Shown here in pieces: positions 18,249 to 50,215 of a stretch of 64,000 nt of DNA. Below the pieces are notes generated by a model. The model had not been told where the DNA came from. It did no database searches and was given only the letters and a program-made list of their open reading frames with translations. Source of the stretch: a bacterium (lineage in GTDB: Bacteria; Armatimonadota; Zipacnadia; Zipacnadales; Zipacnadaceae); assembly GCA_030602615.1 (NCBI GenBank), contig JAUVZM010000005.1:5094-69093 (forward strand), in the 5' to 3' direction. The stretch's first letter is position 1, and each line of letters begins with the position of its first letter. Both the position numbers and the translations under genes were made by a program.

Positions 18249-18842
18249 ATGGCAATGGATCTCGTCTTTGCTAATCGGCTACTGGCCAGCTTCACTGACC
18301 AGGCGATCACCATCAGTGAAACGGCGCTGGTGGCACTCGCCCGGCAGGGCGACCATCACGCCTTCGAAGTCCTGGTGCGGCAGTACAGGAACCGTGTGTT
18401 GAACGTGGTCTGGCGCATCGTCTCCGATGCCGACGGCGCCCAGGACGTGGCGCAGGAGACATTCATCAAGGCGTACCAGCAACTCCCTCGCTTCCGGGGG
18501 AAGTCCACGTTCGGCACGTGGCTGTACCGCATAGCGGTCAACGAGGCACGCGGGCACCTCCGCGCACGGCGCCGACGGCAGGCCCGCTGGGAAAAGCAAG
18601 GAATGCTGGAAGCAGTTCAGCCGGTGTCTCCCGAGGTTGGCGAACAGGCTGGGCCAATCGTGGGTCTACTGCAGGAACTGCCGGAAAAGCAGCGCATCGC
18701 GCTGGCCCTGTTCTATCTGCAGGAACTGTCCGTGGCCGAGATTGCCCGGGCAGTGCGCGCGCCGACCGGGACGGTTAAGGCGTGGCTGTCTCGCGGTCGG
18801 CAGCGACTGCGAGAACTCGCCCAGGAAAGAGGGCTTCTGTGA
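18249..18842 (+). CDS. ECF-family RNA polymerase sigma factor
   Basis: Region 2 (FEVLVRQY...AQDVAQETFIKAY) and region 4 (LSVAEIARAVRAPTGTVKAWLSRGRQRL) are both present. Confidence 0.8.
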   Translation: MAMDLVFANRLLASFTDQAITISETALVALARQGDHHAFEVLVRQYRNRVLNVVWRIVSDADGAQDVAQETFIKAYQQLPRFRGKSTFGTWLYRIAVNEARGHLRARRRRQARWEKQGMLEAVQPVSPEVGEQAGPIVGLLQELPEKQRIALALFYLQELSVAEIARAVRAPTGTVKAWLSRGRQRLRELAQERGLL

Positions 18843-19349: not shown

Positions 19350-19715
19350 CTACGGTATGGTGAGCGCCTCGGCGGCGGCCTCCACATTCTCCAGAATCGG
19401 CACCATCGCGGCTACACCTGTCGTCAGAGTAGAAGCGGCCACCGAACCAGTGGCGCCAGCGATGGCCATATCGCCGCCCCGGCTGCGCAGGCGTACGGCA
19501 GTAGTCAGAAGCTGGCCCAGAGCCCGAGATATCAGGAATTCTGCGCCGGAAAGATCCACCACTAGGTAGCGGACGTCCTCGTCTATCAAGCTATCCAGCA
19601 GACGACTCAGCCGCTCCAGGCCCTCAGCGCCAGCGTCCACCTCTCCGCGAATAGCAAGCACTGTCACCGGCGGCTCGCGGTCTATCTCAGTCACTGCTGT
19701 TTCCATCTGCCTCAC
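19350..19715 (-). CDS. STAS-domain anti-sigma factor antagonist (SpoIIAA-like)
   Basis: The length of 121 aa and the pattern VTVLAIRGEVDAGAEGL...LVVDLSGAEFLISRALGQLL match a STAS domain. Confidence 0.7.
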   Translation of the reverse strand: MRQMETAVTEIDREPPVTVLAIRGEVDAGAEGLERLSRLLDSLIDEDVRYLVVDLSGAEFLISRALGQLLTTAVRLRSRGGDMAIAGATGSVAASTLTTGVAAMVPILENVEAAAEALTIP

Positions 19716-20556
19716 CTACTTTTGCCTTGGCGATCTGATGCTGACTTGCCCAGTCCAACAGATGCTCGGCGCACTCGTCAGGCACCTCAACCGCACCGAT
19801 CTCCACTGGTATCGGCCCCTCTGGCCCATGCGAGTCGCTGCCTCCGGTGATCAGCAGATCATTCTCCTGGGCCATCACGATATAACGACGGGTCTGCGCC
19901 GGGCTGTGAATAATATGATACGCCTCTATGCCCTGCAAGCCGCAGTCTATCAAGCTGTCAACATGTTGCTCAGCGCCATCCAGTACCGGGTGGGCCAGCA
20001 CGGGTATCCCGCCAGCGCTAATTACCAACTCTACAGCCTCGCCGGGAGCAAGCTGGTAGCGCTCCACGTAAGCTGAGCCGCCCCGGCGCAGATACCGAGC
20101 AAAGGCCTGCCGGGAATCAGCCACGTGGCCCTCTCTGGCTAATCGCCGGGCGATATGGGGCCGGCCAATGCTGTCAGGGCCAGCCTCTTCCAGCAGCTTT
20201 TCAAAGTCAATGACAATCCCCAGCTTCTCCAGCTCATCAGCAATCTGGCGTGCCCGCTGGTGGCGGGCGTCGCGAATCGCCTGCAACTTCTCCCGCAATC
20301 CGACGTGCTGTAGGTCAATGAAGTAGCCCAGGATATGTACGTCCCGGCTGTCTACCGTGGTACTTATCTCAACGGCGGGCAATACCTGCAATTCAGTGTC
20401 AGCAGCCGCCTGCTGCGCGGGCACAACCCCTGATATGCTATCATGGTCACTAATGGCAATCGCTGTCAGTTGCTTATCCAGGGCCACTTGCACTATCTGC
20501 TGCGGCGTCAGCGTGCCATCGGAAAAAGTTGAATGAATGTGTAAGTCAATTGCCAT
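19687..20556 (-). CDS. PHP-domain phosphoesterase (TrpH/YciV-like)
   Basis: MAIDLHIHSTFSDG...AISDHD...HP are PHP metal-binding motifs. The chosen start is ATG at 20556, and the ORF-track N-terminal extension is judged unlikely. It overlaps the helicase stop by 11 nt. Confidence 0.75.
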   Translation of the reverse strand: MAIDLHIHSTFSDGTLTPQQIVQVALDKQLTAIAISDHDSISGVVPAQQAAADTELQVLPAVEISTTVDSRDVHILGYFIDLQHVGLREKLQAIRDARHQRARQIADELEKLGIVIDFEKLLEEAGPDSIGRPHIARRLAREGHVADSRQAFARYLRRGGSAYVERYQLAPGEAVELVISAGGIPVLAHPVLDGAEQHVDSLIDCGLQGIEAYHIIHSPAQTRRYIVMAQENDLLITGGSDSHGPEGPIPVEIGAVEVPDECAEHLLDWASQHQIAKAKVGEADGNSSD

Positions 20557-22876
20557 TCTGCGGTTTATTTCCCGAAGTGGCCGGCTCAGTCCTTCCTGTT
20601 GCCCACAACTGAGCCAGCAGTGCTGCGCCCGTCTTGTCCAACGGTTGATTGTCATCGCCGCAACTGGGCGACTGCACGCAGCCCGGACAGCCGGCTTCAC
20701 ACGAGCAGTTTGTTATCCGTTCATAGACCGCACCCAACACTTCCTCGGCCCGGTAGTAGGCCTCCTCGCAGATACCCACCCCCCCCGGATATCCGTCATA
20801 GATGAAAACTCCCCCGCCGTCCAGTGCTTTGTGATAAAAATACGAAACCCCCCCAATATCGTGGGCCTCACACAGCGCAAACAAGGGTAGCAGCGCCACG
20901 AGCGCGTGCTCCAGAGCGTGCAGGCTACCCATGGGGTGGCACTTGTGCGCGGCCAGCATCTGCGCCGCCGCCTCGCTGAGGGTCAGCCATACTCCTACTG
21001 TCTCGTAGTCCTGCGCCGGTAAATTCAGCTTTTCGCTTCCACATTGCTGGCCGCTTTCCCGGTTGAACTTGCGATACCCCACGACCTGGTTGTGGACATT
21101 GACCTCGCCGAGGCCTATCTGGCCGCAGCCAGCCAGCTCTCGCCTGTCATAAGCCTCAATGACATCCACGTCCGACATCTCCAGAGTCTGAGTGTAATAT
21201 TCAACATCAGTCGGCTCCACGGTGATGCGGTACTCTTCTATATCCAGGTCAGTAACCAGGTAGTCCTCTCCCTGGTGCAGGTAGACCGCGCCGGGATAGG
21301 TTATCCAGTAGACCGAATGTTCGTCAATCGTGCCCAGCAGCTCATCACAACTGGCATCAATAATCTCAAACTCGCCACCGGCACTGCTGCGGATATTGAC
21401 CTCGGCCGGTGGATAGATATCTACATCGCCGGACCAGTGCCAGCGGCGGCGCTTGCGCAGATAGTTGTGCTTCTCCAATGTCTGCAGAATTGCAGGCATC
21501 TGAGGGCCGAAGAAATCCTCGTCATCTTCAGCCAGCGACAACTCGTAAGCTGCGCACAGCAGATGCTGTCCCAGAATGAAGCGGTTATCGGGATTGATCA
21601 ACACTCGCTCCTGAGCAGCGTCCAGCAGATACTCGGGATGCTCAATGACATACTGGTCAATACCGCCGGGCAGCGCCACCAGCACGGCAAGCGAATCATG
21701 CTGCCCCCGGCCAGCCCGCCCGACCTGTTGCCAGGCCGAGGAGATACTGCCCGGATAACCGGTCATCACCACCGCGTCCAAGCCACCGATGTCCACGCCT
21801 AGCTCCAGGGCACTGGTAGCCGCCACCGCCAGCAAGTCACCGGAAAAGAGTTGCTGCTCGATCTGGCGCCGCTGCTCAGGTAAGTACCCTCCCCGATAAG
21901 CCATCAGGCGCTCGCTGAGCCTCTCATCGCCAGCCAGCTCGCGCATGTACTGGAGAATAAGCTCGGCATGCTGGCGGGCCTGGGTGAAGGTGAGCGTGCG
22001 AATGCCGCGGCCGGCCAGCGCCACGGTTAGCTTAGCAGCCTCCACACTGCCGCTGCGCCGCCGACCTGAGTCAGGTTCGAGCAGCGGCGGATTCCAGAAG
22101 ACGAAAAAACGCCGTCCCCGCGCCGAGGTGTCTTCGCTGATCACCTCAAAATCTGCCCCCACCAGCCGTCGGCAGTGCTCGCCGGGATTGCCCACAGTCG
22201 CCGACGAGCAGATGAACTGCGGCTCTGCACCGTGGTATTGGGCAATCCGCCGCAGTCGGCGCAGCACATTGGCCGTGTGCGAGCCGAACACGCCCCGGTA
22301 GGTATGCACCTCATCGAGCACGACATACTTAAGGTGCTCAAAGAAGTCGGCCCACGACTGATGATACGGGCAGACGGCCATATGCAGCATATCGGGGTTG
22401 GTGAGAATGACTTGCGAATACTGGCGGATGCGCCGGCGCTGGCTCTGGGGGGTGTCGCCGTCGTAGGTGTTAGCGGTAAACACCTCCCCGGCGCCAAAAT
22501 CGCTCAGCTTGCCCAGTTGATCCTGCGCCAGCGCCTTGGTCGGATAGACCAGGATTGCTCGAGTGGTTGGGTCTTCGTATATTGCCTGGGCCAGTGGCAC
22601 TGTGTAACACAGTGTCTTTCCGCTGGCCGTACCCGCGGCAATGACCACATTTTTGCCGGCAAATACCTGCTCGATGGCCCGGACCTGGTGACGATAGAGC
22701 CTATCCAGGCCCAGATTATCCAGAATAGTCTCCACCTGCGGGCTTAGTTGTACATCCAGTTCATCGTAACGCGCCGGCTGCGGGGGAATCACCTGAAGAT
22801 GCTGGATCTGGTCCTGGTAATCTGCACCTGTGGTCAGCTCATCCAGGAATGCCTCGATGGGAGACTGCTCGCTCAC
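20546..22876 (-). CDS. DEAH-box helicase with a C-terminal DUF1998 zinc-finger domain (MrfA/YprA-like)
   Basis: Walker A (AAGTASGKT), DEVH box (VVLDEVHTY) and helicase C motifs are present. The C-terminal CSCEAGCPGCVQSPSCG four-Cys motif is the DUF1998 hallmark. Confidence 0.75.
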   Translation of the reverse strand: MSEQSPIEAFLDELTTGADYQDQIQHLQVIPPQPARYDELDVQLSPQVETILDNLGLDRLYRHQVRAIEQVFAGKNVVIAAGTASGKTLCYTVPLAQAIYEDPTTRAILVYPTKALAQDQLGKLSDFGAGEVFTANTYDGDTPQSQRRRIRQYSQVILTNPDMLHMAVCPYHQSWADFFEHLKYVVLDEVHTYRGVFGSHTANVLRRLRRIAQYHGAEPQFICSSATVGNPGEHCRRLVGADFEVISEDTSARGRRFFVFWNPPLLEPDSGRRRSGSVEAAKLTVALAGRGIRTLTFTQARQHAELILQYMRELAGDERLSERLMAYRGGYLPEQRRQIEQQLFSGDLLAVAATSALELGVDIGGLDAVVMTGYPGSISSAWQQVGRAGRGQHDSLAVLVALPGGIDQYVIEHPEYLLDAAQERVLINPDNRFILGQHLLCAAYELSLAEDDEDFFGPQMPAILQTLEKHNYLRKRRRWHWSGDVDIYPPAEVNIRSSAGGEFEIIDASCDELLGTIDEHSVYWITYPGAVYLHQGEDYLVTDLDIEEYRITVEPTDVEYYTQTLEMSDVDVIEAYDRRELAGCGQIGLGEVNVHNQVVGYRKFNRESGQQCGSEKLNLPAQDYETVGVWLTLSEAAAQMLAAHKCHPMGSLHALEHALVALLPLFALCEAHDIGGVSYFYHKALDGGGVFIYDGYPGGVGICEEAYYRAEEVLGAVYERITNCSCEAGCPGCVQSPSCGDDNQPLDKTGAALLAQLWATGRTEPATSGNKPQNGN

Positions 22877-23697
22877 TGCTCCTCACCTTCGGGGTCATCG
22901 ATCAGCTCATCATAGGGCGGGGGGAGCAGCTCATCTTCGCCGTCGGAGAGGTGAGGGCGCTTTTCGACCAGACGCACCAGACCAATGCTGAGCACATACA
23001 GCAACACCAGGGGCCCGGCCATAAACAGCATTGTCACCGGGTCGGTGGTGGGTGTAGCCACGGCCGCAACGATGAATATAGCAACCAGGGCATAGCGCCA
23101 CCATGTGAGCAGGCCGGTTGCTCGCACGATGCCAACCACACCCAGAAACATCAGCACCAGCGGCAGCTCAAAAGCCAGCCCGAAGACCAGCAGCAGTCGC
23201 AGCAGGAAATACAGATAGGGCTGGAGGGTCAGCTCCACCTCCACGCCCATGCTCTGATTGATGTGGAAGAAGAACGCGAAGGCGCGCGGCGAGATAAGAT
23301 AGCAGAACACAACTCCCCCGCCAAAAAGAATGGTTGCCGCTGGCAGCAGCCAGAAGACATAACGCTTCTCGTGGGGCTCGAGGGCCGGCTTGATGAATAG
23401 CCACATCTCCATAAAGATCAGCGGCGCGGCGAGGATGAGGCCAGCCACCAGCGCGATCTGCATCATCAGTATGAACCCGGCGGCCGGCTCGAAGATGCGG
23501 AAGGGCAGCTCCTCAATACCCGCCTGCTGCGCGCCGATCTCCGCCGGCAGCCGCAGGACTTCAAGCAGCGGACTGCGGATGGTCCAAGCCAACGCGGTGC
23601 CAACCGCCACATAGATAAGCATCCGCAGGATGCGCATACGCAGCTCATCCAGATGCTCAAAGAACGAGGCCTCTTTTCGGTAGCTCTGGGCAGTCAC
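22873..23697 (-). CDS. tatC: twin-arginine translocase subunit TatC
   Basis: Six transmembrane helices and the TatC N-terminal motif FFEHLDELRMRIL are present, with a short acidic C-terminal tail. Confidence 0.85.
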   Translation of the reverse strand: MTAQSYRKEASFFEHLDELRMRILRMLIYVAVGTALAWTIRSPLLEVLRLPAEIGAQQAGIEELPFRIFEPAAGFILMMQIALVAGLILAAPLIFMEMWLFIKPALEPHEKRYVFWLLPAATILFGGGVVFCYLISPRAFAFFFHINQSMGVEVELTLQPYLYFLLRLLLVFGLAFELPLVLMFLGVVGIVRATGLLTWWRYALVAIFIVAAVATPTTDPVTMLFMAGPLVLLYVLSIGLVRLVEKRPHLSDGEDELLPPPYDELIDDPEGEEQ

Positions 23698-23825: not shown

Positions 23826-24197
23826 GTGGTAACTGAATCTGGAACACCTGATGATATACTCCGTACGCTGCGCCGGGACAACCCCGACGTCACCGCGGCG
23901 ATGGTGGTGACCCCCGACGGCTTCCCCGTTGCCGCGGATACCGGCCCGCAGGTCTCCGAGGATATGCTGGGGGCGCTGGCGGCTGACCTTCTCACCCGCG
24001 CAGCCCGCAGCGCTCGAGAATTCGGACAGGGCACCATCGAAGAGCTGTACGCTCGCGCCGAGACTGGTCATCTGATTGTGGTTACCGCCGGCGCCGAGCA
24101 GCTCCTGGCCTGCCTGGCTGCACCGGAAGTGACCCTGGGCCTGCTGCTGGCCGACGTGCGCCAGGCTGCCAATAAGCTGGCCTCAACTGCTGGCTAA
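23826..24197 (+). CDS. roadblock/LC7 domain protein (MglB-like)
   Basis: The 123-aa alpha-beta-alpha LC7 pattern TAAMVVTPDGFPVAAD...GHLIVVTAGAEQLLA is present. The start is GTG, preceded by GAGGAGG. Confidence 0.65.
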   Translation: MVTESGTPDDILRTLRRDNPDVTAAMVVTPDGFPVAADTGPQVSEDMLGALAADLLTRAARSAREFGQGTIEELYARAETGHLIVVTAGAEQLLACLAAPEVTLGLLLADVRQAANKLASTAG

Positions 24198-24231: not shown

Positions 24232-25230
24232 CTATCTGCGTTCCTTGTACCATGTCTCAAAGTATTCCCGGCTGCGGGCCAGGCTACGTTCCAGCCAGTC
24301 CTGATGGTCGGCAAACCAGCGCACCGTTCTGCGCAGGCCCTCTTCCCACTGAATCTGTGGCTGCCAGCCCAGTTCAGCCATTTTCTGGCCACTCATAGCA
24401 TACCGAACATCGTGACCGGGACGATCCGTTACATGCTTGATGAGGCTGGCGGGCTTGCCCAGCTCGTCCAGTATCACTCGAATCGTCTCCAGATTCTCGC
24501 GCTCGCTGCCGGCGAGAATGTTATACACCTCTCCGACCTGGCCCTTCTCCAGCAATGTGTGCATCGCCCGACAGTAGTCGGTCACATGCAGCCAGTCGCG
24601 CCGCTGCCGGCCATCGCCGTAGACCGGCAACGGCTCGTCGCGCAGCGCCTTATAGACGAACAGCGGCACCAGCTTCTCGGGATATTGATAGGGGCCGTAG
24701 TTGTTACACGGGCGCGAGATGATAACGGGCACGTCGTAGGTCACATAGTACGCCTGGGCCAGGTGGTCGGCGCCGGCCTTGCTGGCTGAGTAGGGATTGC
24801 GGGGATTCAGCCGCGCCGCTTCGTCGAACTGGCCCGTCTTAACCGGCCCGTAAACCTCATCGGTGGAGACATGCAGAAACAGATCCGGCTGAGTCTGGCG
24901 GGCAGCCTCCAGCAGCACAAAAGTACCCTGAAAGTTGGTCTGCATTGCCGGCTGCGGCCCCAGGATGCTGCGGTCCACATGCGACTCCGCCGCCAGGTGC
25001 ACCACCACATTCACGCCGGCCATCGCCTCCTGCACTACATCCACATCGCAAATATCTCCTTCAACAATAGTGACCCTGGGGTCGGCATCAACGTCGGCCA
25101 GATTCTCCCGACTGCCCGCATAAGTGAACTTGTCCAGCACCCGCACCCGCGCATCCGGAATATGCTCAAGCAGATACCGGACGAAATTACAACCAATGAA
25201 TCCTGCGCCACCCGTTACTAGAATGTTCAT
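24232..25230 (-). CDS. rfbB: dTDP-glucose 4,6-dehydratase
   Basis: The N-terminus MNILVTGGAGFIGCNFVRYLL, the YSASKAGADH catalytic motif and the SDR-extended fold are present. The start is taken at the internal ATG at 25230. Confidence 0.85.
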   Translation of the reverse strand: MNILVTGGAGFIGCNFVRYLLEHIPDARVRVLDKFTYAGSRENLADVDADPRVTIVEGDICDVDVVQEAMAGVNVVVHLAAESHVDRSILGPQPAMQTNFQGTFVLLEAARQTQPDLFLHVSTDEVYGPVKTGQFDEAARLNPRNPYSASKAGADHLAQAYYVTYDVPVIISRPCNNYGPYQYPEKLVPLFVYKALRDEPLPVYGDGRQRRDWLHVTDYCRAMHTLLEKGQVGEVYNILAGSERENLETIRVILDELGKPASLIKHVTDRPGHDVRYAMSGQKMAELGWQPQIQWEEGLRRTVRWFADHQDWLERSLARSREYFETWYKERR

Positions 25231-25270
25231 ACCCGTCTCCCTGACTACATCACATGTGGGGATGATCATA

Positions 25271-26068
25271 TCAATCGGCTGATCCAGCTTCCTGCATCAG
25301 CGCCTCAAGATCAGGCATTCCACCTTTCGGTGTAACACCTATTAGTGCTTGAGCAGCCTCAATTTGAATACCAAGGGCTATCATGAGTTGACGCAGTATC
25401 CACAGGGATAGCTTCTGCTGATCAATACGTTCGGTGTGTCCGTCCAGCCTAAGCTCGTCGGGGAAGGCGTATGTTACCCCGTAGACACTGGGATGAACCA
25501 ACTCGCACAGCCGGGCATAACAGCAGTCAAACTGCATCCTACGCCCTGCCTGCCGAAATGTACTGGCAATGCTGAGACCATTCCAGCTATCGGCGTCTTG
25601 GAAGAGTGGCTGGCCATTCTCGTCATGCTCTCCTTGCCAAAGCCCATCTCGGAACTCACGGAACTCTTTGACCTTTTCCCTCAAACACCGCCGTGCTTTG
25701 GGAGTATCGTACCGCGACACTATCTTGTGCTTCTTGAACCCTTTCCAGGCTCGAAGCCGATCCTGTGCGTCACTAATCAGAAACAGTCTAGCGAAGTCTT
25801 CAGCATCGCTTCCTCTACTACGTATGTAGGCCAGCACGCCTGCGTCCTCGAATACCGTGCGCGTCAGGACACCTGCTGCTTCCCAGTACTCACTATCAAG
25901 CAGGAGTTTGGTAGCACAACCGAAGTTGGAGGATCGCGAAAAAACCACGTGAATTGCGCCCCATCGGTGCAGTTGTGAACGGGGAGTATTTCCGTGTTGG
26001 ATCAACCTTCCCCAAACAGTTTCGGCCACTTCCTGATGACAGGTGAGTATCTCATCAAGTGACTTCAT
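25271..26068 (-). CDS. hypothetical protein in a lower-GC stretch (orphan)
   Basis: The 265-aa ORF has no recognised domain. Local GC is about 50-57% against roughly 62% in the surroundings. It is wedged between rfbB and purN. Confidence 0.4.
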   Translation of the reverse strand: MKSLDEILTCHQEVAETVWGRLIQHGNTPRSQLHRWGAIHVVFSRSSNFGCATKLLLDSEYWEAAGVLTRTVFEDAGVLAYIRSRGSDAEDFARLFLISDAQDRLRAWKGFKKHKIVSRYDTPKARRCLREKVKEFREFRDGLWQGEHDENGQPLFQDADSWNGLSIASTFRQAGRRMQFDCCYARLCELVHPSVYGVTYAFPDELRLDGHTERIDQQKLSLWILRQLMIALGIQIEAAQALIGVTPKGGMPDLEALMQEAGSAD

Positions 26069-26127
26069 AGGCTCATACACCGTACCTCTACGCGCTTTGT
26101 CCAAGAAGTACCTACCGCGGGACTGTC

Positions 26128-26796
26128 TCAGATCTCCAATCCCGGGCTGATTATTGCCTCCATGATAGTCGGTGGGCGAGCGTCTTCCAGAATTACGCGG
26201 CGGCCCTCGATACGCAGGCGACCCTCGGCACACCACTGAATCGCCTGCGGGTATATCTTATGCTCCTGCGCAAGGATACGAGCGGCGAGGCTGGCGCCGT
26301 CGTCGCCGGGGAGCACCGGCACCGCCGCCTGGATGATAATCGGGCCGGTATCAAACTCCGGCCAGGCAAAATGCACCGTGCAGCCCGCGACTTTCACGCC
26401 ATAGTCAGCAGCATCCTCCTGCCCGTGCGTGCCTGGGAAAGAGGGCAGCAGCGCCGGGTGAATGTTGAGTATCGCCTCCGGATAGGCTGCAAACATATTG
26501 GGCCCGATCAGGCGCATATATCCCGCCAGACAGACCAGGTCCACATCGTGGTTCTGGAGCAGTTCAACATGCCGCCGATCCGCCGCTGTGAATTCAGGGC
26601 TGTCATTTTTGCCGACGGGCACGTGGTAGGCAGGGATGTCGTGGCTGCGGGCCCGCTCCAGCGCATACGCATCAGCCTTGTCGCTGATGACCACCGTCAC
26701 CGTGGCGTCAATCCTGCCTCCTGCGCAGGCATCAATAATCGCTTGCAGGTTAGTCCCGCCGCCGGAGACGAATACACCAAGGTTGAGCTGGCTCAT
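26128..26796 (-). CDS. purN: phosphoribosylglycinamide formyltransferase
   Basis: The N-terminus LGVFVSGGGTNLQAII and the catalytic motifs NIHPALLP..G.H are present. The start is taken at the internal ATG at 26796. Confidence 0.85.
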   Translation of the reverse strand: MSQLNLGVFVSGGGTNLQAIIDACAGGRIDATVTVVISDKADAYALERARSHDIPAYHVPVGKNDSPEFTAADRRHVELLQNHDVDLVCLAGYMRLIGPNMFAAYPEAILNIHPALLPSFPGTHGQEDAADYGVKVAGCTVHFAWPEFDTGPIIIQAAVPVLPGDDGASLAARILAQEHKIYPQAIQWCAEGRLRIEGRRVILEDARPPTIMEAIISPGLEI

Positions 26797-43948: not shown

Positions 43949-46900
43949 GTGGCTGATGATACCATCCGCATTCGGGGCGCCGCCCAACACAATTTGCGTA
44001 AGGTTGACCTCGATCTGCCGAAGAACCGCCTTATTGTTTTCACTGGCATCAGCGGCTCGGGCAAGTCATCCCTGGCCTTTGATACCTTGTTTGCCGAGGG
44101 GCAACGGCTGTATGTGGAGTCGCTTTCCACCTATGCCCGGCAGTTTCTCCAGGAGATGCCCCGCCCGCAGGTGGATAGCATCGAGGGGCTGGCCCCGGCT
44201 GTAGCCATTGACCAGGCCAAACGCAGCCATAATCCTCGCTCGACAGTAGCCACTATCACCGAGATATACGATCACCTGCGGGTGCTGTTCGCCGCCATCG
44301 GCACGCTGCATTGCCCTAAGTGTGGGCGCGAAGTAGGCGCCCAAACTCGGGAAAGTGTGATACAGCGTATCGTCGGCCTGGCCAGCGAGAGCACCATGCA
44401 GATTCTGGCACCGCTGGAGCGTGGGCGCAAGGGCCAGTTCAAGGAACTCTTCGCCGACCTGCGGCAAGCAGGCTACGCTCATGCCCGCGTGGATGGCCGG
44501 TTCATCCACCTTACTGAACCCCCGGAACTGGACCGCTACCGCCGTCATGACGTTGAGGTGGTGGTTGACCGGCTGGCGGCTGGTGCACACTCCCCCAGCC
44601 GCATAGGCGAGGCCATCGACATTGCCTTTGATCTGGGTGAGGGTAATCTCATCGCAGTGCCCGAAGACGGTGAGGATATCCTGTTTAGCCGCAATTTCGC
44701 CTGCCCCGACTGTCAGATCAGCATCCCCGAGCCTACCCACACCTCGTTTTCGTTCAACAGCCCCCGCGGTATGTGCCCGACCTGCGAGGGCCTCGGTGAG
44801 GCCCGCACCATTGACCCGGAACTGCTGGTCGCTCATCCCGACAGGTCGCTGGCCTCCGGGGCGATACCGCTACTGAGGTCGCTGCGCAGCGCCCGCCGCC
44901 GCCACTGGTATCAGGGCGTCGCCGACCATTACGGATTCACCCTCGACACGCCCTGGAAGGAGCTAACTGAGAAGCAACGCCACGCCTTACTGTATGGTTC
45001 CGGCGAGGAACTGATTGAGTTTTACTATCGCCATGCCCGCCACGGCTGGGAGTGGCGCCACGCTGATGTATGGGAGGGGATAATTCCCGGGCTGACGCAC
45101 CGGTACAAACGGGCTGAGTCCCGCCTGCTGCGCCAGCGTTTCGAGCAGGTCATCCGCCAGCAGCCGTGCCCCGACTGCCACGGTCAGCGGCTGCGCCCCG
45201 AGAGCCTGGCAGTGACCATCGGAGGGAAGTCAATCGCCGCCATTACCGGCCTCACTGTAGATCAGGCCGGCGAGTTCTTTGCCAAGCTAACACTCAACGA
45301 AAACGACGCACTCATAGCCGAAGACGCTCTTAAGGAGATCACGGAGCGGCTGTCGTTTCTGAAAGAGGTGGGTCTGCACTACCTGACGCTGGATCGCACT
45401 GCACCGACCCTATCCAGCGGCGAAGCCCAGCGCATCCGCCTGGCCGGACAGGTGGGCAGCGGCCTGACTGATTGCCTCTATGTCCTGGATGAGCCCAGCA
45501 TCGGCCTGCACTACCGTGACCAGGGGCGCCTGCTGGAGGCACTCAAACGACTACGGGATCTGGATAACACGGTGATCGTCGCTGAGCACGACGAGCAGAC
45601 CATCACCAATGCTGACTATGTTGTGGACTTTGGTCCGGGAGCAGGTGCCCAGGGCGGCCAGATTGTCAGCGTCGGCACTGTAACAGAAATAAAGAACGAT
45701 TTAGACTCGCTGACCGGCGACTATCTGGCCGGACGGCGCAGCATCCCGATTCCCAGTCAGCGTCGTGACGGCAACGGGGCCAGCCTGACACTGTGCGGAG
45801 CCCAGCACAATAACCTGAAGGATATAGATGTGAAATTCCCGCTGGGCCGGTTTGTTTGCATCACCGGCGTGTCAGGCTCAGGCAAGAGTTCGCTGATTGC
45901 CGACACCCTCCATCCGATTCTGGCCGCCGAGCTACACAGCGCCGAGACTGAGCCGGGGGAGTTTGATCATCTCGAAGGTATTGAGAACGTGCGTAAGGTG
46001 GTGATGATTGACCAGTCACCGATCGGCCGCACCCCGCGAAGCTGCCCGGCCACCTACACCAAAGTCTTCGACGATATCCGCCGGCTGTACGCGCAACTGC
46101 CTGCCTCGCGGGAACGCGGCTATACGCCTGGCCGATTCAGCTTCAACGTTAAGGAGGGCCGCTGCCCCCACTGCGACGGCTACGGCGCCGTCAAGCTACA
46201 ATCGGATTTCCTGGCTGACGTGTGGGTGCAATGTGAAGAGTGTCATGGACAGCGGTTCGACCGGGAAACGCTAACCATTCAGTACAAGGGCGCCGGCATC
46301 GCTGAGGTGCTGGATATGGAGGTCAGCCGGGCGCTGGAGCACTTCGCTAATGTTCCCAAAATCAAGCGGGTGCTGCAGGTCCTGGCCGATGTCGGGCTGG
46401 GCTACATCAAGCTGGGACAGTCGGCAACTACCCTCTCCGGCGGCGAGGCCCAGCGAGTCAAGCTGGCCCGCGAGCTGGCCCGTCCCCAGCAGGGCGACTG
46501 CCTGTATCTGCTTGATGAACCTACCACCGGCCTGCACTTTGAGGATGTCCGCCATCTGCTGGCCCTGCTGGGACGGATGGTGGACGGCGGTAATACTGTA
46601 ATCATCATCGAGCACCATCCTGACATCATCAAGACAGCCGATTATGTAATTGATCTGGGGCCGGAGGGTGGCGAGGAAGGCGGCGAGGTGGTCGCGACAG
46701 GTACCCCGGAGCAGGTCGCCAAATGCCGCCGCTCGCACACCGGTCAACTGCTCGACCAGATACTCAACGGTGCCGACGGGAGCCAGCCAATCCCACGAGT
46801 TGGCACTCAGCGGCGCAGTAGCCAGCCCAAATGTGAGGCCATCCAAGTGTGGGGCGCCCGCGAGCATAATCTCAAGAATATCAGCGCCAGGGTCCCCCGC

Positions 46901-49900
46901 CGGCAGATGGTCGTCTTCTCGGGTGTATCAGGCTCGGGCAAGACCTCCCTGGCAGTAGACACCATCTACGCCGAAGGTCAGCGGCGCTTTGTCGAATCGC
47001 TATCTTCCTATGCCCGCCAATTTGTCAGCGAGATGCCCAAGCCCAAGGTAGACCGGGTCCGGGGCCTATCGCCGGCGGTAGCTATTGACCCGCGCAACAC
47101 GGTCCAGACGCCGCGCTCAACTGTCGGCACAATGACCGAGATATACGACTACCTGCGGGTGCTGTACGCCCGGCTGGGTGTTCCCCACTGCCCGGAGTGC
47201 GGCAGCAACCTGGGTGCAGCCTCCGTTGATGATATTGTTGACCGCCTGCTGAGCAAGCTGCACCGCCGCGAGATTATGATCCTGGCGCCTCTCCAGCCTA
47301 AAGCCACCGAAGAATACCAGGAACTGCTCGAACGGCTACAGCGGCAGGGCTGGGTGCGCATTCGCCTGGACGGACAAATCCAGCGGCTGCCGTTTGCCTC
47401 TGCGCCGGACCGGCGCAGCCACCACAAACTTGAACTGGTGGTAGACCGCCTGCGCGTGGCAGAAAAGCACAGGTCGCGCCTCGCTGAAGCCGTGGAGACC
47501 GCCCTTGCCGTCGGAGGGGGGCAAGTAATAGCAGCACCTACGGCTGAGACGGCCGCACCAGACGAAGAGCTGACTTTTTCCAGCGAGCTTTCCTGCCCTA
47601 ACTGCGGCACCGCCTACCAGGAATTAGAGCCGCGCAGCTATTCGTTCAACCATGCCCAGGGCTGGTGCCCGGTTTGCGAAGGGCTCGGCACTCAACCAGG
47701 TGTAGAACCGGCGGCGCTGGTGCCGGACGAGAGCAAGTCAATCCGCGAGGGCGCCGTCAGTCTGTGGGGGCCATTGGAACGGGACAGCCTGCTGTATAAG
47801 CTGCTTGCCGCGGTCGCGGAAGCCGCCGGGTTCAGTCTCAATCAGCCCTTTGCCGAGTTGACGTTCGCCCAGCGGAATCTTGTCTTTTCCGGCGGTGATG
47901 AGCAATTCACCGTTGACGGGATGACTGTGCGATTCAAGGGATTAGTGGAAGGTATCCGGTCGGCAGTGCAGTTGGGCGATAAGATGCGGCGCAGATTTGC
48001 CCGCGCCTGGACCGATGTGCCCTGCCACGCCTGCGGTGGAGGACGGCTGCGTCCCGAGCCCGCCGCCACTCGCTTTCGTACTCACACACTGCCTGAGCTG
48101 TGCCGCTACTCACTGGAAGAGGCACTCGGCTTTTTCGAGCAACTCGACCTATCATCCACTGAAGAGCAGCGCGCCGGAGAGATTCCTGAAGAGGTGCTCA
48201 GCCGGCTGCGGCTGCTGGTGGATATCGGCCTCGATTATCTCACATTGGATCGGCCAGCAGCGTCACTTTCCGGCGGGGAGGCCCAGCGTATCAAGCTGGC
48301 CAGCCAGCTCCGATCCGGACTCACCGGCGTACTTTATGTGCTCGACGAGCCGACTGTCGGCGTTCATCCCCGCGACAATGAGCGGATGCTGGCGGCGCTG
48401 GATTCGCTGCGGGATTTGGGCAACAGCCTCATCATCGTCGAGCACGACCCCCAGACCATCAACCGGGCTGACTATGTTATGGACTTCGGACCGGGCGCCG
48501 GCCGCGAGGGTGGCGAGATAATCGCCACTGGCACCCAACGAGGCATCAGGCGGCGCAACTCGCCGACCGGCCACTACCTGGCCGGCAAGCTGGCTGTCCC
48601 TGTTCCTCAACCCCGGCGGTGGCCCAATGACGGCAACAATAGTGAACTGAAGATTCTGGGCGCGGCCCATCATAATCTCAAAGATGTTGATGTAACCGTC
48701 CCGCTGGGCTGCCTGGTTTGCGTCACCGGCCCGTCTGGCTCCGGCAAAAGCTCGCTTATCGAGGAGATCCTTTATCCGGAGCTGGCCTGGCGGCTGCAGG
48801 GCAAAGCGACTACGCCAGGGCGGCATCGGGACATCATCGGCAGCGAAGCTGTTGACAGGGTGATAAATATCGACCAGTCGCCGATCGGCCAGTCGCCGCG
48901 CTCCAACGCCGCTACTTACACCGGCATCTTTGACCTGATCCGCGAGTTCTATGCCAGCCTGCCGGAGGCGCGCATGCGCGGCTATACCTCCGGCTGGTTT
49001 AGCTTTAACAATGCGGGAGGGCGTTGCGAACACTGCCAGGGGATGGGGACAATCCACGTGGAGATGCACTTTCTGCCCGATGTCTGGGTGACCTGCGAGG
49101 AGTGTCAGGGGCGGCGGTACAAGCCGGAGATACTGGAGATCGAATACAAACACCGCAATATCTCTGATATTCTAGAAACAACTGCCGCTGAAGCATTGGA
49201 GCTGTTTGCTGACTTTCCCAGGTTGCACCGGATGCTTAGCGTAATGTGCCAGGTCGGGCTGGGCTACCTTCCGCTGGGGCAAGCTGCGCCCACCCTGTCG
49301 GGAGGCGAGGCCCAGCGGGTCAAGCTGGTCCGCGAACTGGCCCGGCCCCGCCGCGGTCATACTATCTATCTGCTGGATGAGCCGACCACTGGCCTGCATC
49401 CCGCCGACATCATCAAGCTGCTATGCGTGCTAAATCGGTTGGTCGAACAGGGCAATACAATGGTGGTCATTGAGCACAACCTTGACGTCATAAAGACTGC
49501 TGACTACGTCATTGACCTGGGGTCGGGAGGTGGCGACCGGGGCGGGGAGGTGTGCGCTGCCGGTACTCCCGAGCAAGTTGCCCAAAGCGATTCACCTACT
49601 GCTATTTACCTGAAGAAGGCGCTGGCAGCAAGTCCCACGGTCGGTCGCCAGGAGCTAACCGCACCGCTGCTGGAGACCAAACCCGGCGGCAAGGTGGCGG
49701 CAATGCGCTCGGAGGTCCAGGCGCCCTGGCAGCGCGACCCGGCAAAGTGGCATCAGGAGCAGCGCACAACCGCCGACGGCGAGCAGCGCGCCTGGGATGT
49801 CGAAGCGCTCACTGTGCTCGAGGAAGCTATCAGCCAGCTAGCCGACCCACCCGACGGAGACTGGGAGCATCCCCGCTACATCAAGTATCAGCTCGATGGC

Positions 49901-50215
49901 TCCAGCGACTGGTTCGTGCGGGCGCGCACCGACAAGAAATGGTACCTGGACCTGCAACTGCGCACCGAAAAGGGACTTCTTGACGAAGTGCAACTGGCCC
50001 AGCGCCTTGCTCTGCCCACCTGGAACGAGATTGAAGACCTGCCCAAGTACGGCGAGGGCGCTCGCGTGCGGGTACACACCCGTGCTGCTGACTACGACAG
50101 GATTAGCCTGCAGATCTTCTCGGCCGATGACCTGCGTCAGCCACAGTTTGCCAGCTTTCTGGCAACTTGCTACCAGGGCTACCGGCGCATGATCGGATGG
50201 AAGGAGGGCGGCTGA
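43949..50215 (+). CDS. uvrA: tandem-fused double UvrA (two complete UvrA modules in one 2088-aa chain) with a ~190-aa uncharacterised C-terminal domain
   Basis: Module 1 (~aa 1-955) and module 2 (~aa 960-1890) each carry two ABC ATPase domains: Walker A GISGSGKSS / GVSGSGKSS and GVSGSGKTS / GPSGSGKSS, plus LSGGEAQR signatures. Each also has zinc-finger CxxC pairs and a UvrB-binding-like region (ILAPL...VVVDR). The frame is continuous with no internal stop. The ~190-aa C-terminal tail has no recognised family. Confidence 0.8.
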   Translation: MADDTIRIRGAAQHNLRKVDLDLPKNRLIVFTGISGSGKSSLAFDTLFAEGQRLYVESLSTYARQFLQEMPRPQVDSIEGLAPAVAIDQAKRSHNPRSTVATITEIYDHLRVLFAAIGTLHCPKCGREVGAQTRESVIQRIVGLASESTMQILAPLERGRKGQFKELFADLRQAGYAHARVDGRFIHLTEPPELDRYRRHDVEVVVDRLAAGAHSPSRIGEAIDIAFDLGEGNLIAVPEDGEDILFSRNFACPDCQISIPEPTHTSFSFNSPRGMCPTCEGLGEARTIDPELLVAHPDRSLASGAIPLLRSLRSARRRHWYQGVADHYGFTLDTPWKELTEKQRHALLYGSGEELIEFYYRHARHGWEWRHADVWEGIIPGLTHRYKRAESRLLRQRFEQVIRQQPCPDCHGQRLRPESLAVTIGGKSIAAITGLTVDQAGEFFAKLTLNENDALIAEDALKEITERLSFLKEVGLHYLTLDRTAPTLSSGEAQRIRLAGQVGSGLTDCLYVLDEPSIGLHYRDQGRLLEALKRLRDLDNTVIVAEHDEQTITNADYVVDFGPGAGAQGGQIVSVGTVTEIKNDLDSLTGDYLAGRRSIPIPSQRRDGNGASLTLCGAQHNNLKDIDVKFPLGRFVCITGVSGSGKSSLIADTLHPILAAELHSAETEPGEFDHLEGIENVRKVVMIDQSPIGRTPRSCPATYTKVFDDIRRLYAQLPASRERGYTPGRFSFNVKEGRCPHCDGYGAVKLQSDFLADVWVQCEECHGQRFDRETLTIQYKGAGIAEVLDMEVSRALEHFANVPKIKRVLQVLADVGLGYIKLGQSATTLSGGEAQRVKLARELARPQQGDCLYLLDEPTTGLHFEDVRHLLALLGRMVDGGNTVIIIEHHPDIIKTADYVIDLGPEGGEEGGEVVATGTPEQVAKCRRSHTGQLLDQILNGADGSQPIPRVGTQRRSSQPKCEAIQVWGAREHNLKNISARVPRRQMVVFSGVSGSGKTSLAVDTIYAEGQRRFVESLSSYARQFVSEMPKPKVDRVRGLSPAVAIDPRNTVQTPRSTVGTMTEIYDYLRVLYARLGVPHCPECGSNLGAASVDDIVDRLLSKLHRREIMILAPLQPKATEEYQELLERLQRQGWVRIRLDGQIQRLPFASAPDRRSHHKLELVVDRLRVAEKHRSRLAEAVETALAVGGGQVIAAPTAETAAPDEELTFSSELSCPNCGTAYQELEPRSYSFNHAQGWCPVCEGLGTQPGVEPAALVPDESKSIREGAVSLWGPLERDSLLYKLLAAVAEAAGFSLNQPFAELTFAQRNLVFSGGDEQFTVDGMTVRFKGLVEGIRSAVQLGDKMRRRFARAWTDVPCHACGGGRLRPEPAATRFRTHTLPELCRYSLEEALGFFEQLDLSSTEEQRAGEIPEEVLSRLRLLVDIGLDYLTLDRPAASLSGGEAQRIKLASQLRSGLTGVLYVLDEPTVGVHPRDNERMLAALDSLRDLGNSLIIVEHDPQTINRADYVMDFGPGAGREGGEIIATGTQRGIRRRNSPTGHYLAGKLAVPVPQPRRWPNDGNNSELKILGAAHHNLKDVDVTVPLGCLVCVTGPSGSGKSSLIEEILYPELAWRLQGKATTPGRHRDIIGSEAVDRVINIDQSPIGQSPRSNAATYTGIFDLIREFYASLPEARMRGYTSGWFSFNNAGGRCEHCQGMGTIHVEMHFLPDVWVTCEECQGRRYKPEILEIEYKHRNISDILETTAAEALELFADFPRLHRMLSVMCQVGLGYLPLGQAAPTLSGGEAQRVKLVRELARPRRGHTIYLLDEPTTGLHPADIIKLLCVLNRLVEQGNTMVVIEHNLDVIKTADYVIDLGSGGGDRGGEVCAAGTPEQVAQSDSPTAIYLKKALAASPTVGRQELTAPLLETKPGGKVAAMRSEVQAPWQRDPAKWHQEQRTTADGEQRAWDVEALTVLEEAISQLADPPDGDWEHPRYIKYQLDGSSDWFVRARTDKKWYLDLQLRTEKGLLDEVQLAQRLALPTWNEIEDLPKYGEGARVRVHTRAADYDRISLQIFSADDLRQPQFASFLATCYQGYRRMIGWKEGG

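Follow-up and report, generated by a model that had tools for sequence, protein, structure and literature searches.

A conserved tatC-helicase-PHP-STAS gene block in one Armatimonadota lineage places a YprA/MrfA-type helicase gene beside a TrpH/RNase AM-type PHP phosphoesterase gene

Helicases of the YprA/MrfA family are widespread, and outside the mrfAB pair of Bacillus and the defence systems they have been described without a conserved gene context or a known partner. Bell et al. 2025 divide the family into a defence branch and a repair branch, the latter made up of MrfAB and of the "YprA only" helicases, for which they report no conserved context, and MrfA is more widely conserved than MrfB (Burby and Simmons). 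Two members of the family, SftH and MrfA, hydrolyse ATP in a DNA-dependent manner, translocate along single-stranded DNA (ssDNA), and have 3'→5' helicase activity. Here, we examined a helicase of this family encoded in a stretch of 64,000 nucleotides (nt) from an Armatimonadota genome (GCA_030602615.1, contig JAUVZM010000005.1; hereafter, the window), where its gene overlaps a gene for a PHP-family phosphoesterase. A preliminary description had read the two genes as an operonic two-component module for repair or defence, in which the PHP enzyme may take the place of the DnaQ-type exonuclease MrfB. We found that the pair belongs to a block of four genes, tatC, helicase, PHP, and STAS, that recurs in one Armatimonadota subclade, and that the PHP enzyme is not expected to act as an equivalent of MrfB. 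The helicase and the PHP protein each add a new member to a known family.

In the window, the four genes lie on the reverse strand in the order given, and successive genes overlap by 4, 11, and about 20 nt. By its open reading frame (ORF) coordinates, tatC (22873–23697; 274 amino acids [aa]; Pfam TatC, E = 6e−59) is the first gene of the block, and its stop codon overlaps the GTG start of the helicase gene (20546–22876; 776 aa) in the sequence GTGA at 22873–22876. The helicase and PHP genes overlap by 11 nt (20546–20556), exactly as had been described previously, with the helicase TGA at 20548–20546 and the ATG of the PHP gene (19687–20556; 289 aa) at 20556–20554. The last gene (19350–19715, with a probable ATG at 19706) encodes a STAS-domain protein of about 118–121 aa (Pfam STAS, E = 4e−12), and its start overlaps the stop of the PHP gene. 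The two outer overlaps, on the same strand, were absent from the preliminary description. The ATG at 20556–20554, which opens MAIDLHIHSTFSDG (MAIDLHIHS...), is supported as the start of the PHP gene because position 1 of the Pfam PHP profile aligns at residue 4, a database protein of 289 aa (P0121) is 100% identical to the product, and the N-terminus M-x-[IV]-DLHIHS is kept in 10 orthologues. The helicase TGA falls inside codons 3–4 of the PHP gene (ATT GAC, Ile-Asp). The same 11-nt overlap occurs in the near-identical metagenome contigs L081 and L083, and in the locus L167 (7327–7337, GTT GAT), whose helicase shares 52% identity with that of the window. We considered the overlap in the window clade and L167 as a sign of common ancestry, and it is not a strong one, because a TGA forms automatically when a codon of the form xxT precedes the GAY codon of the invariant Asp4, and the overlap could thus have arisen independently. 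A scan of the block for promoters and terminators gave counts near the shuffled expectation, with no convincing internal promoter or terminator. The genes of the block are probably co-transcribed.

To place the pair among its relatives, we scanned 80 helicase loci from genomes (one genome per GTDB species) and 80 from metagenomes, scoring PHP adjacency by tblastn and with a PHP profile. A full-length TrpH-like PHP gene adjoined the helicase gene in three of these 160 loci (L001, L081, and L083), all of them closely similar to the window sequence, and no full-length PHP gene was found near the helicase in the other 157, which came from Chloroflexota, Actinomycetota, Latescibacterota, and other groups. 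Because the 80 genome-scan loci included no more than six Armatimonadota species, the single PHP link seen there (1/80) is subject to a sampling effect. Targeted lookups of the Armatimonadota homologues were then made, and in total the helicase–PHP pair was found in 12 loci of one Armatimonadota subclade, with helicase identities of 52–93%. The preliminary description had proposed a search of helicase neighbourhoods for recurrent PHP partners, with an unconserved pairing as the outcome that would speak against it; the search showed that the pairing does recur. The PHP gene lies downstream of the helicase gene at +29 nt in L162 (71% helicase identity), +80 nt in L163 (66%), +135 nt in L164 (64%), +204 nt in L165 (56%), and +34 nt in L168 (54%), so that with the overlap in L167 the spacing ranges from −11 to +204 nt. 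In two further loci reached from PHP homologues (L169 and L170), the helicase gene is directly upstream of the PHP gene, and a STAS gene is downstream; the helicase of L169 is a 5'-truncated, unannotated ORF of 703 aa. Furthermore, 20 pairs of helicase and PHP clusters in the two homologue lists match in the size of their longest contig, and some of these contigs are only 3.7–7 kb in length, with room for little else, which is indirect evidence that they are additional cases.

The recurrent unit extends beyond the pair. The four-gene block was found in L001, L081, L083 (where the end of tatC is off the contig), L162, L163, L164, L167, L168, L169 (tatC off the contig), and L170, and without STAS in L165, and the order tatC-helicase-PHP-STAS is kept down to approximately 52% helicase identity while the flanking genes change. 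The deeper lineages differ in the genes that flank these four, and the block is better viewed as a conserved operon than as remnant synteny. STAS was called directly after the PHP gene in L162, L163, L167, L168, L169, and L170, and was located after it by tblastn in L001, L081, and L083; in L164, an inserted MFS gene precedes it. The distance from PHP to STAS runs from an overlap to +49 nt in nearly all loci that have a PHP gene. The coupling of PHP to STAS is thus tighter than that of PHP to the helicase, and PHP-STAS may be the primary unit.

At the other end of the block, tatC is directly upstream of the helicase gene in 16 of the 17 Armatimonadota loci with upstream sequence (among them L001, L002, L003, L011, L019, L161–L165, L167, L168, and L170), often with an overlap of 1–4 nt. 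In the deeper Armatimonadota loci L002, L003, L011, and L019, tatC is kept and there is no PHP gene at the helicase; a PpiC rotamase gene is downstream of the helicase in L002. The link of the helicase to tatC therefore predates its link to PHP and is the more constant of the two. No tatA gene adjoins the tatC-helicase pair, and the NCBIfam model nearest to the helicase (TIGR03817) happens to bear the name "helicase/secretion neighborhood." The PHP link has also been lost. In L161, the closest non-conspecific relative (79% helicase identity), tatC and the helicase gene are followed by a convergent URO-D gene, and both PHP and STAS are missing there, whereas in L166 (53% helicase identity) the helicase gene has moved elsewhere and has neither tatC nor PHP beside it. 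Conversely, a stand-alone PHP orthologue, 47–49% identical to the linked ones, occurs in L171 and L172, with no STAS in L171. In a tree of the helicases built by neighbour joining (from distances, without support values), a single Armatimonadota subclade contained all the PHP-linked helicases, and L161 and L166 were nested within it, which indicates one gain and at least two losses of the PHP link. Of the earlier idea of an operonic two-component module, co-transcription is upheld as probable, but a two-component module is not supported: the conserved unit has four genes, its tatC link is the more constant, and its PHP link has been lost in some loci, with PHP occurring alone in others. Because tatC, a functionally unrelated gene, is linked at least as constantly, conserved order does not by itself imply a shared function. 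Among the 240 listed homologues of the helicase or of the PHP protein, no protein combines both sets of domains, although no dedicated search for fusions was made.

The helicase itself is MrfA/YprA-like and fused to DUF1998, as had been stated; no database record with exactly its sequence was found. Its domains are RecA1, RecA2, a winged helix, and an OB-CON-MZB (DUF1998) module, and Pfam matches covered DEAD, Helicase_C, WHD_HRQ1 (E = 2e−14), and MZB, the former DUF1998 (E = 1.5e−21; residues 655–734). Its top match in the PDB was B. subtilis YprA/MrfA (6ZNP, E = 2.2e−171), with residues 13–736 aligned to residues 10–732, so that the two proteins are collinear from end to end and the large insertions of the defence homologues are not present. 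Structures from the defence branch aligned with parts of the core only. Against TIGR03817 it scored 814.6 bits over profile positions 1–736 of 742, where the cutoff is 874.1 bits, and it may be regarded as a close relative of that family that falls slightly under the cutoff. In an alignment with 13 homologues, motif I (Walker A, GTASGKT, residues 82–88; 22613–22633, reverse strand, located from the translation and the alignment) has T83, A84, G86, K87, and T88 invariant, and motif II (DEVH, residues 188–191; 22304–22315, reverse strand) has D188, E189, and H191 invariant. The residues of motif III (SAT) and motif VI (QxxGRxGR) are also invariant, so that the core of an SF2 DExH helicase is intact. 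All five cysteines of the MZB/DUF1998 zinc-binding domain (C724, C726, C730, C733, and C739; 20660–20707, reverse strand) are likewise invariant. By these features, the protein is assigned to the repair branch of the MrfA/YprA/SftH family and would be an ATP-driven 3'→5' ssDNA translocase/helicase of the "YprA only" type.

The place that the preliminary description had given to the PHP enzyme, that of the usual DnaQ-type partner, was not borne out. A profile built from an MrfB-like gene of L024 and three relatives detected an MrfB-like RNase_H_2 gene near the helicase in only 4 of the 160 scanned loci (L024, L035, L050, and L146), and none in the 64-kb window. In the neighbour-joining tree, the helicases of these four loci formed a separate clade, with the window helicase outside. 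MrfB is therefore not the usual partner of this helicase, which the sequence evidence places in the "YprA only" branch, in agreement with Bell et al. 2025 and with the wider conservation of MrfA noted by Burby and Simmons. In the four loci, the RNase_H_2 gene (10324–11103 in L024 and 7051–8253 in L146) overlaps or abuts the stop of the helicase gene, and the hosts are unclassified metagenome-assembled genomes, including Latescibacterota-like ones; these can be regarded as bona fide mrfAB-like pairs outside Firmicutes.

The identification of the second protein as a TrpH/YciV-like PHP phosphoesterase was upheld by its Pfam PHP match, its NCBIfam hits, its structural matches, and its invariant residues. 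Its matches in the PDB were Cv1693 (2YB1, E = 4e−36), E. coli RNase AM (7UG9, E = 7e−32), 3E0F, and V. cholerae RNase AM (9ETK), and about 245 residues, spanning the PHP domain and the insertion lobe, align with Cv1693 and RNase AM. Its residues were mapped by hand from the structure-match alignment onto those of RNase AM in PMC9410882. The nine ligands of the trinuclear site, H6, H8, D13, H38, E63, H74, H189, D241, and H243, correspond to H13, H15, D20, H45, E72, H83, H198, D255, and H257 of RNase AM and are invariant in 10 orthologues; that paper does not include RNase AM H15, the second His of HxH, in its list of ligands. The same orthologues also keep the pocket for the 5'-phosphate in the insertion lobe (R98, R101, and R132, with the stacking residue F152), which is equivalent to R107, R110, R141, and F161 of RNase AM. 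Residue 192 (about 19981–19983) lies at the position of RNase AM R201, the Arg of the motif AHPGRY that contacts the active-site sulfate/phosphate. In virtually all PHP homologues from Armatimonadota (P0121–P0240), this position holds Leu or Ile (AHPGL/AHPVL), and in the stand-alone orthologue P0223 it holds Lys. We considered the change from Arg to Leu as a mark of the helicase-linked PHP genes and drew no conclusion from it, as it is seen across the Armatimonadota group as a whole and Lys is present in the stand-alone orthologue. The NCBIfam scores were 197.8 bits for the pAp phosphatase family NF041577 (cutoff 400) and 164.6 bits for the RNase RNM family NF047791 (cutoff 375). Because both are far under the cutoffs and the equivalent of R201 is absent, the protein is best regarded as a member of the RNase AM-Cv1693 subfamily of TrpH/YciV (COG0613) and not as a proven functional equivalent of either enzyme.

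Characterised relatives of this protein are 5'→3' oligonucleotidases that depend on a 5'-phosphate and pAp phosphatases; the family acts on ribo- and deoxyribo-oligonucleotides, with a preference for pAp and short substrates, and the E. coli enzyme RNase AM carries out the 5'-end maturation of the 5S, 16S, and 23S rRNAs. By analogy, the PHP enzyme of the window would hold three metal ions and bind a 5'-phosphate, and it would trim short 5'-phosphorylated RNA or DNA oligonucleotides in the 5'→3' direction or hydrolyse pAp. MrfB, in contrast, is a DEDDh exonuclease that acts 3'→5'. Because the expected polarity is opposite, the PHP enzyme would not be a like-for-like substitute for MrfB, and the proposed substitution is not supported.

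The surroundings of the block are those of a core genome. Upstream of tatC, a divergent Roadblock/LC7 gene (23826–24197, forward strand; Pfam Robl_LC7), which we do not count in the operon, occurs in the same place in L161–L164 and L170, and this synteny is confined to the closer relatives. Farther upstream are a DUF5677 gene and a GDP-mannose-dehydratase/epimerase-family gene (25271–26236 and 24232–25269; both on the reverse strand), a pair also present in L161, so that synteny reaches further among the closest relatives. On the other side, an ECF sigma gene is located at 18249–18842 (forward strand), and one is also present near the block in L168. The loci L166 and L171 share an upstream trio of ksgA (RrnaAD), an ispE-like GHMP kinase gene, and NTP_transf_3 (1–2227 in L166 and 1–2094 in L171; the NTP_transf_3 products are 44% identical). 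A few kilobases downstream of this trio, L166 has the helicase without PHP; after the trio, L171 has PHP without the helicase. ksgA also adjoins the block in L167. The window as a whole has an even GC content and holds core genes such as those of SecDF, Dxs, XseA, a UvrA-like protein, and YmdB, and no tRNA gene was found in it. In the UvrA-like ORF (43949–50215, forward strand; 2088 aa), the UvrA interaction domain and the UvrA DNA-binding domain each occur twice, as a tandem duplication, and the ORF strongly matched the MADS models mad3 (E = 1e−165) and mad8 (E = 6e−67); these matches are probably due to shared UvrA/ABC-ATPase homology.

Taken together, we lean, with confidence a little above even, towards the view that the block, with tatC, a YprA/MrfA-type helicase, a TrpH-type PHP enzyme, and STAS, is a housekeeping operon specific to its lineage and inherited vertically, and that its members are co-expressed and mechanistically independent. 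The PHP enzyme would then mainly serve the general turnover of nucleotides and oligonucleotides and would not be a dedicated replacement of MrfB. We favour this view because the link to the unrelated tatC is equally conserved, the helicase-PHP spacing is variable, uncoupling has occurred repeatedly, and the known PHP relatives have roles in RNA and nucleotide metabolism. Several observations weigh against it: the helicase-PHP order is kept down to approximately 50% identity despite changes in the flanks, a pattern usual for functionally linked genes; the translational overlap occurs in two deep-branching lineages (the window clade and L167); and deoxy-oligonucleotides are also cut by RNase AM relatives. 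Moreover, we know of no nuclease partner for the YprA-only helicases, and the MrfA of Bacillus needs one. These points would be accommodated by a dedicated two-enzyme module for DNA repair, which we put forward tentatively. In such a module, the 3'→5' helicase would load on a 3' tail or gap and peel off the damaged strand; as it would free the 5' end of that strand first, a 5'→3' exonuclease such as the PHP enzyme could then degrade the displaced strand or excised oligonucleotide from its 5'-phosphate end. The invariance of all nine metal ligands, the Arg triad, and the stacking Phe, the 5'→3' cleavage of both types of oligonucleotide within the family, the 3'→5' action of MrfA-family helicases on DNA together with the work of the Bacillus enzyme with an exonuclease, and the missing MrfB-like gene in the window are consistent with it, as is the adjacency in 12 loci. 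However, the conserved unit also holds tatC and STAS, with a closer tie of PHP to STAS than to the helicase; the two genes have been parted in L161, L166, L171, and L172; the pairing was found in no other sampled phylum; no fusion was seen among the listed homologues; and known PHP members prefer very short substrates, with none having a reported role in DNA repair. It is possible, but rather doubtful, that in one Armatimonadota lineage a PHP enzyme of the TrpH/RNase AM type was recruited to serve a "YprA only" helicase as its dedicated nuclease, possibly with regulation through STAS. If this is true, the recruited enzyme would be the first partner of these orphan repair helicases, in a repair module with a nuclease polarity opposite to that of MrfAB.

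Pairings of helicases with exoribonucleases are common in RNA decay, and an RNA-processing pair can also be envisaged, in which an RNase AM-like 5'→3' exoribonuclease would mature rRNA 5' ends or clear oligoribonucleotides with the help of a helicase acting on RNA or RNA:DNA hybrids. The role of E. coli RNase AM in rRNA maturation fits such a pair, and in L166, L167, and L171 ksgA lies close to the gene for the helicase or the PHP enzyme; however, the proximity of ksgA is loose synteny, and SftH and MrfA are DNA-dependent ATPases that translocate on ssDNA, which makes this explanation improbable. Least probable of all, and in our view highly unlikely, is an anti-phage defence system, a possibility that the preliminary description had entertained with reference to DISARM; it would be a relative of DISARM, Druantia, or Dpd with the PHP nuclease as the effector of a YprA-family helicase. 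The PADLOC models BrxHI, SngC, DruE, DrmA, and DpdF/J do match the helicase (E = 1e−46 to 1e−12), but these matches are partial and confined to the RecA core, against a full-length match to MrfA (E = 2.2e−171), and the helicase is compact, of MrfA length and with a fused DUF1998, which leaves no space for the large domains inserted in the defence homologues. PADLOC found no match for the PHP protein or for any of the five genes neighbouring the helicase, and among the 55 ORFs of the window it found no DISARM, Druantia, or Dpd accessory (a separate DrmB, the PLD nuclease DrmC, a methyltransferase, or DruH). Its other matches in the 64 kb were the UvrA-like ORF 21 kb away (mad3/mad8, and a few minor ATPase-model matches on the same ORF), a TPR protein, and a weak match of the Cas10 model to an HD-domain fragment at the window edge. 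The locus has no features of a mobile element or island, being fixed and syntenic across the clade in a setting of core genes, and we advise against annotating it as a defence system.

A search of the literature did not find the tatC-helicase-PHP-STAS context described, and a search for DUF1998 together with PHP returned nothing pertinent; the most relevant survey (Bell et al. 2025) mentions neither PHP nor TatC. A conserved, phylum-restricted operon with a 5'→3' PHP oligonucleotidase offers a concrete partner hypothesis for a YprA-type helicase, and the equally conserved tatC link cautions that a tight, overlapping gene order in Armatimonadota is no proof of a shared function.

Compared with the known systems, the locus most resembles the MrfA-MrfB (YprA-YprB) pair of B. 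subtilis, which acts in excision repair of mitomycin-C damage, in that the helicase is of the same family, has the same domain order, and matches over its full length, and in that the next downstream gene on the same strand also encodes a metal-dependent enzyme of the phosphodiesterase type. It differs in that this enzyme is of the TrpH type of PHP, expected to act 5'→3' and to require a 5'-phosphate, whereas MrfB is a DEDDh/RNase_H_2 exonuclease with TPR repeats that acts 3'→5'. With the "YprA only" helicases, such as M. smegmatis SftH and the actinobacterial TIGR03817 proteins, it shares a stand-alone helicase with a fused DUF1998 and no MrfB partner, and the window helicase is 41–47% identical to Chloroflexota and Actinomycetota homologues; that branch has no conserved context according to Bell et al. 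2025, whereas here tatC-helicase-PHP-STAS is kept within one phylum. The PHP protein has the metal ligands of RNase AM (YciV/TrpH) and Cv1693 as well as their stacking Phe and the three Arg residues in which the 5'-phosphate is buried, but it lacks the Arg of R201, scores far under the equivalog cutoffs, and has a different gene context. DISARM (DrmA/DrmB/DrmC), Druantia (DruE), and Dpd (DpdF/J) have in common with the locus a YprA-family helicase core and a DUF1998 module, while their split DrmB, PLD nuclease, methyltransferase, inserted domains, and defence island have no counterpart here, where only partial matches to the core were obtained. RecQ-RecJ provides a purely functional analogy: its protein families are unrelated to those of the window pair, but its combination of a 3'→5' DNA helicase with a 5'→3' exonuclease on the displaced strand is the logic that the helicase and the PHP enzyme would follow if they cooperate.

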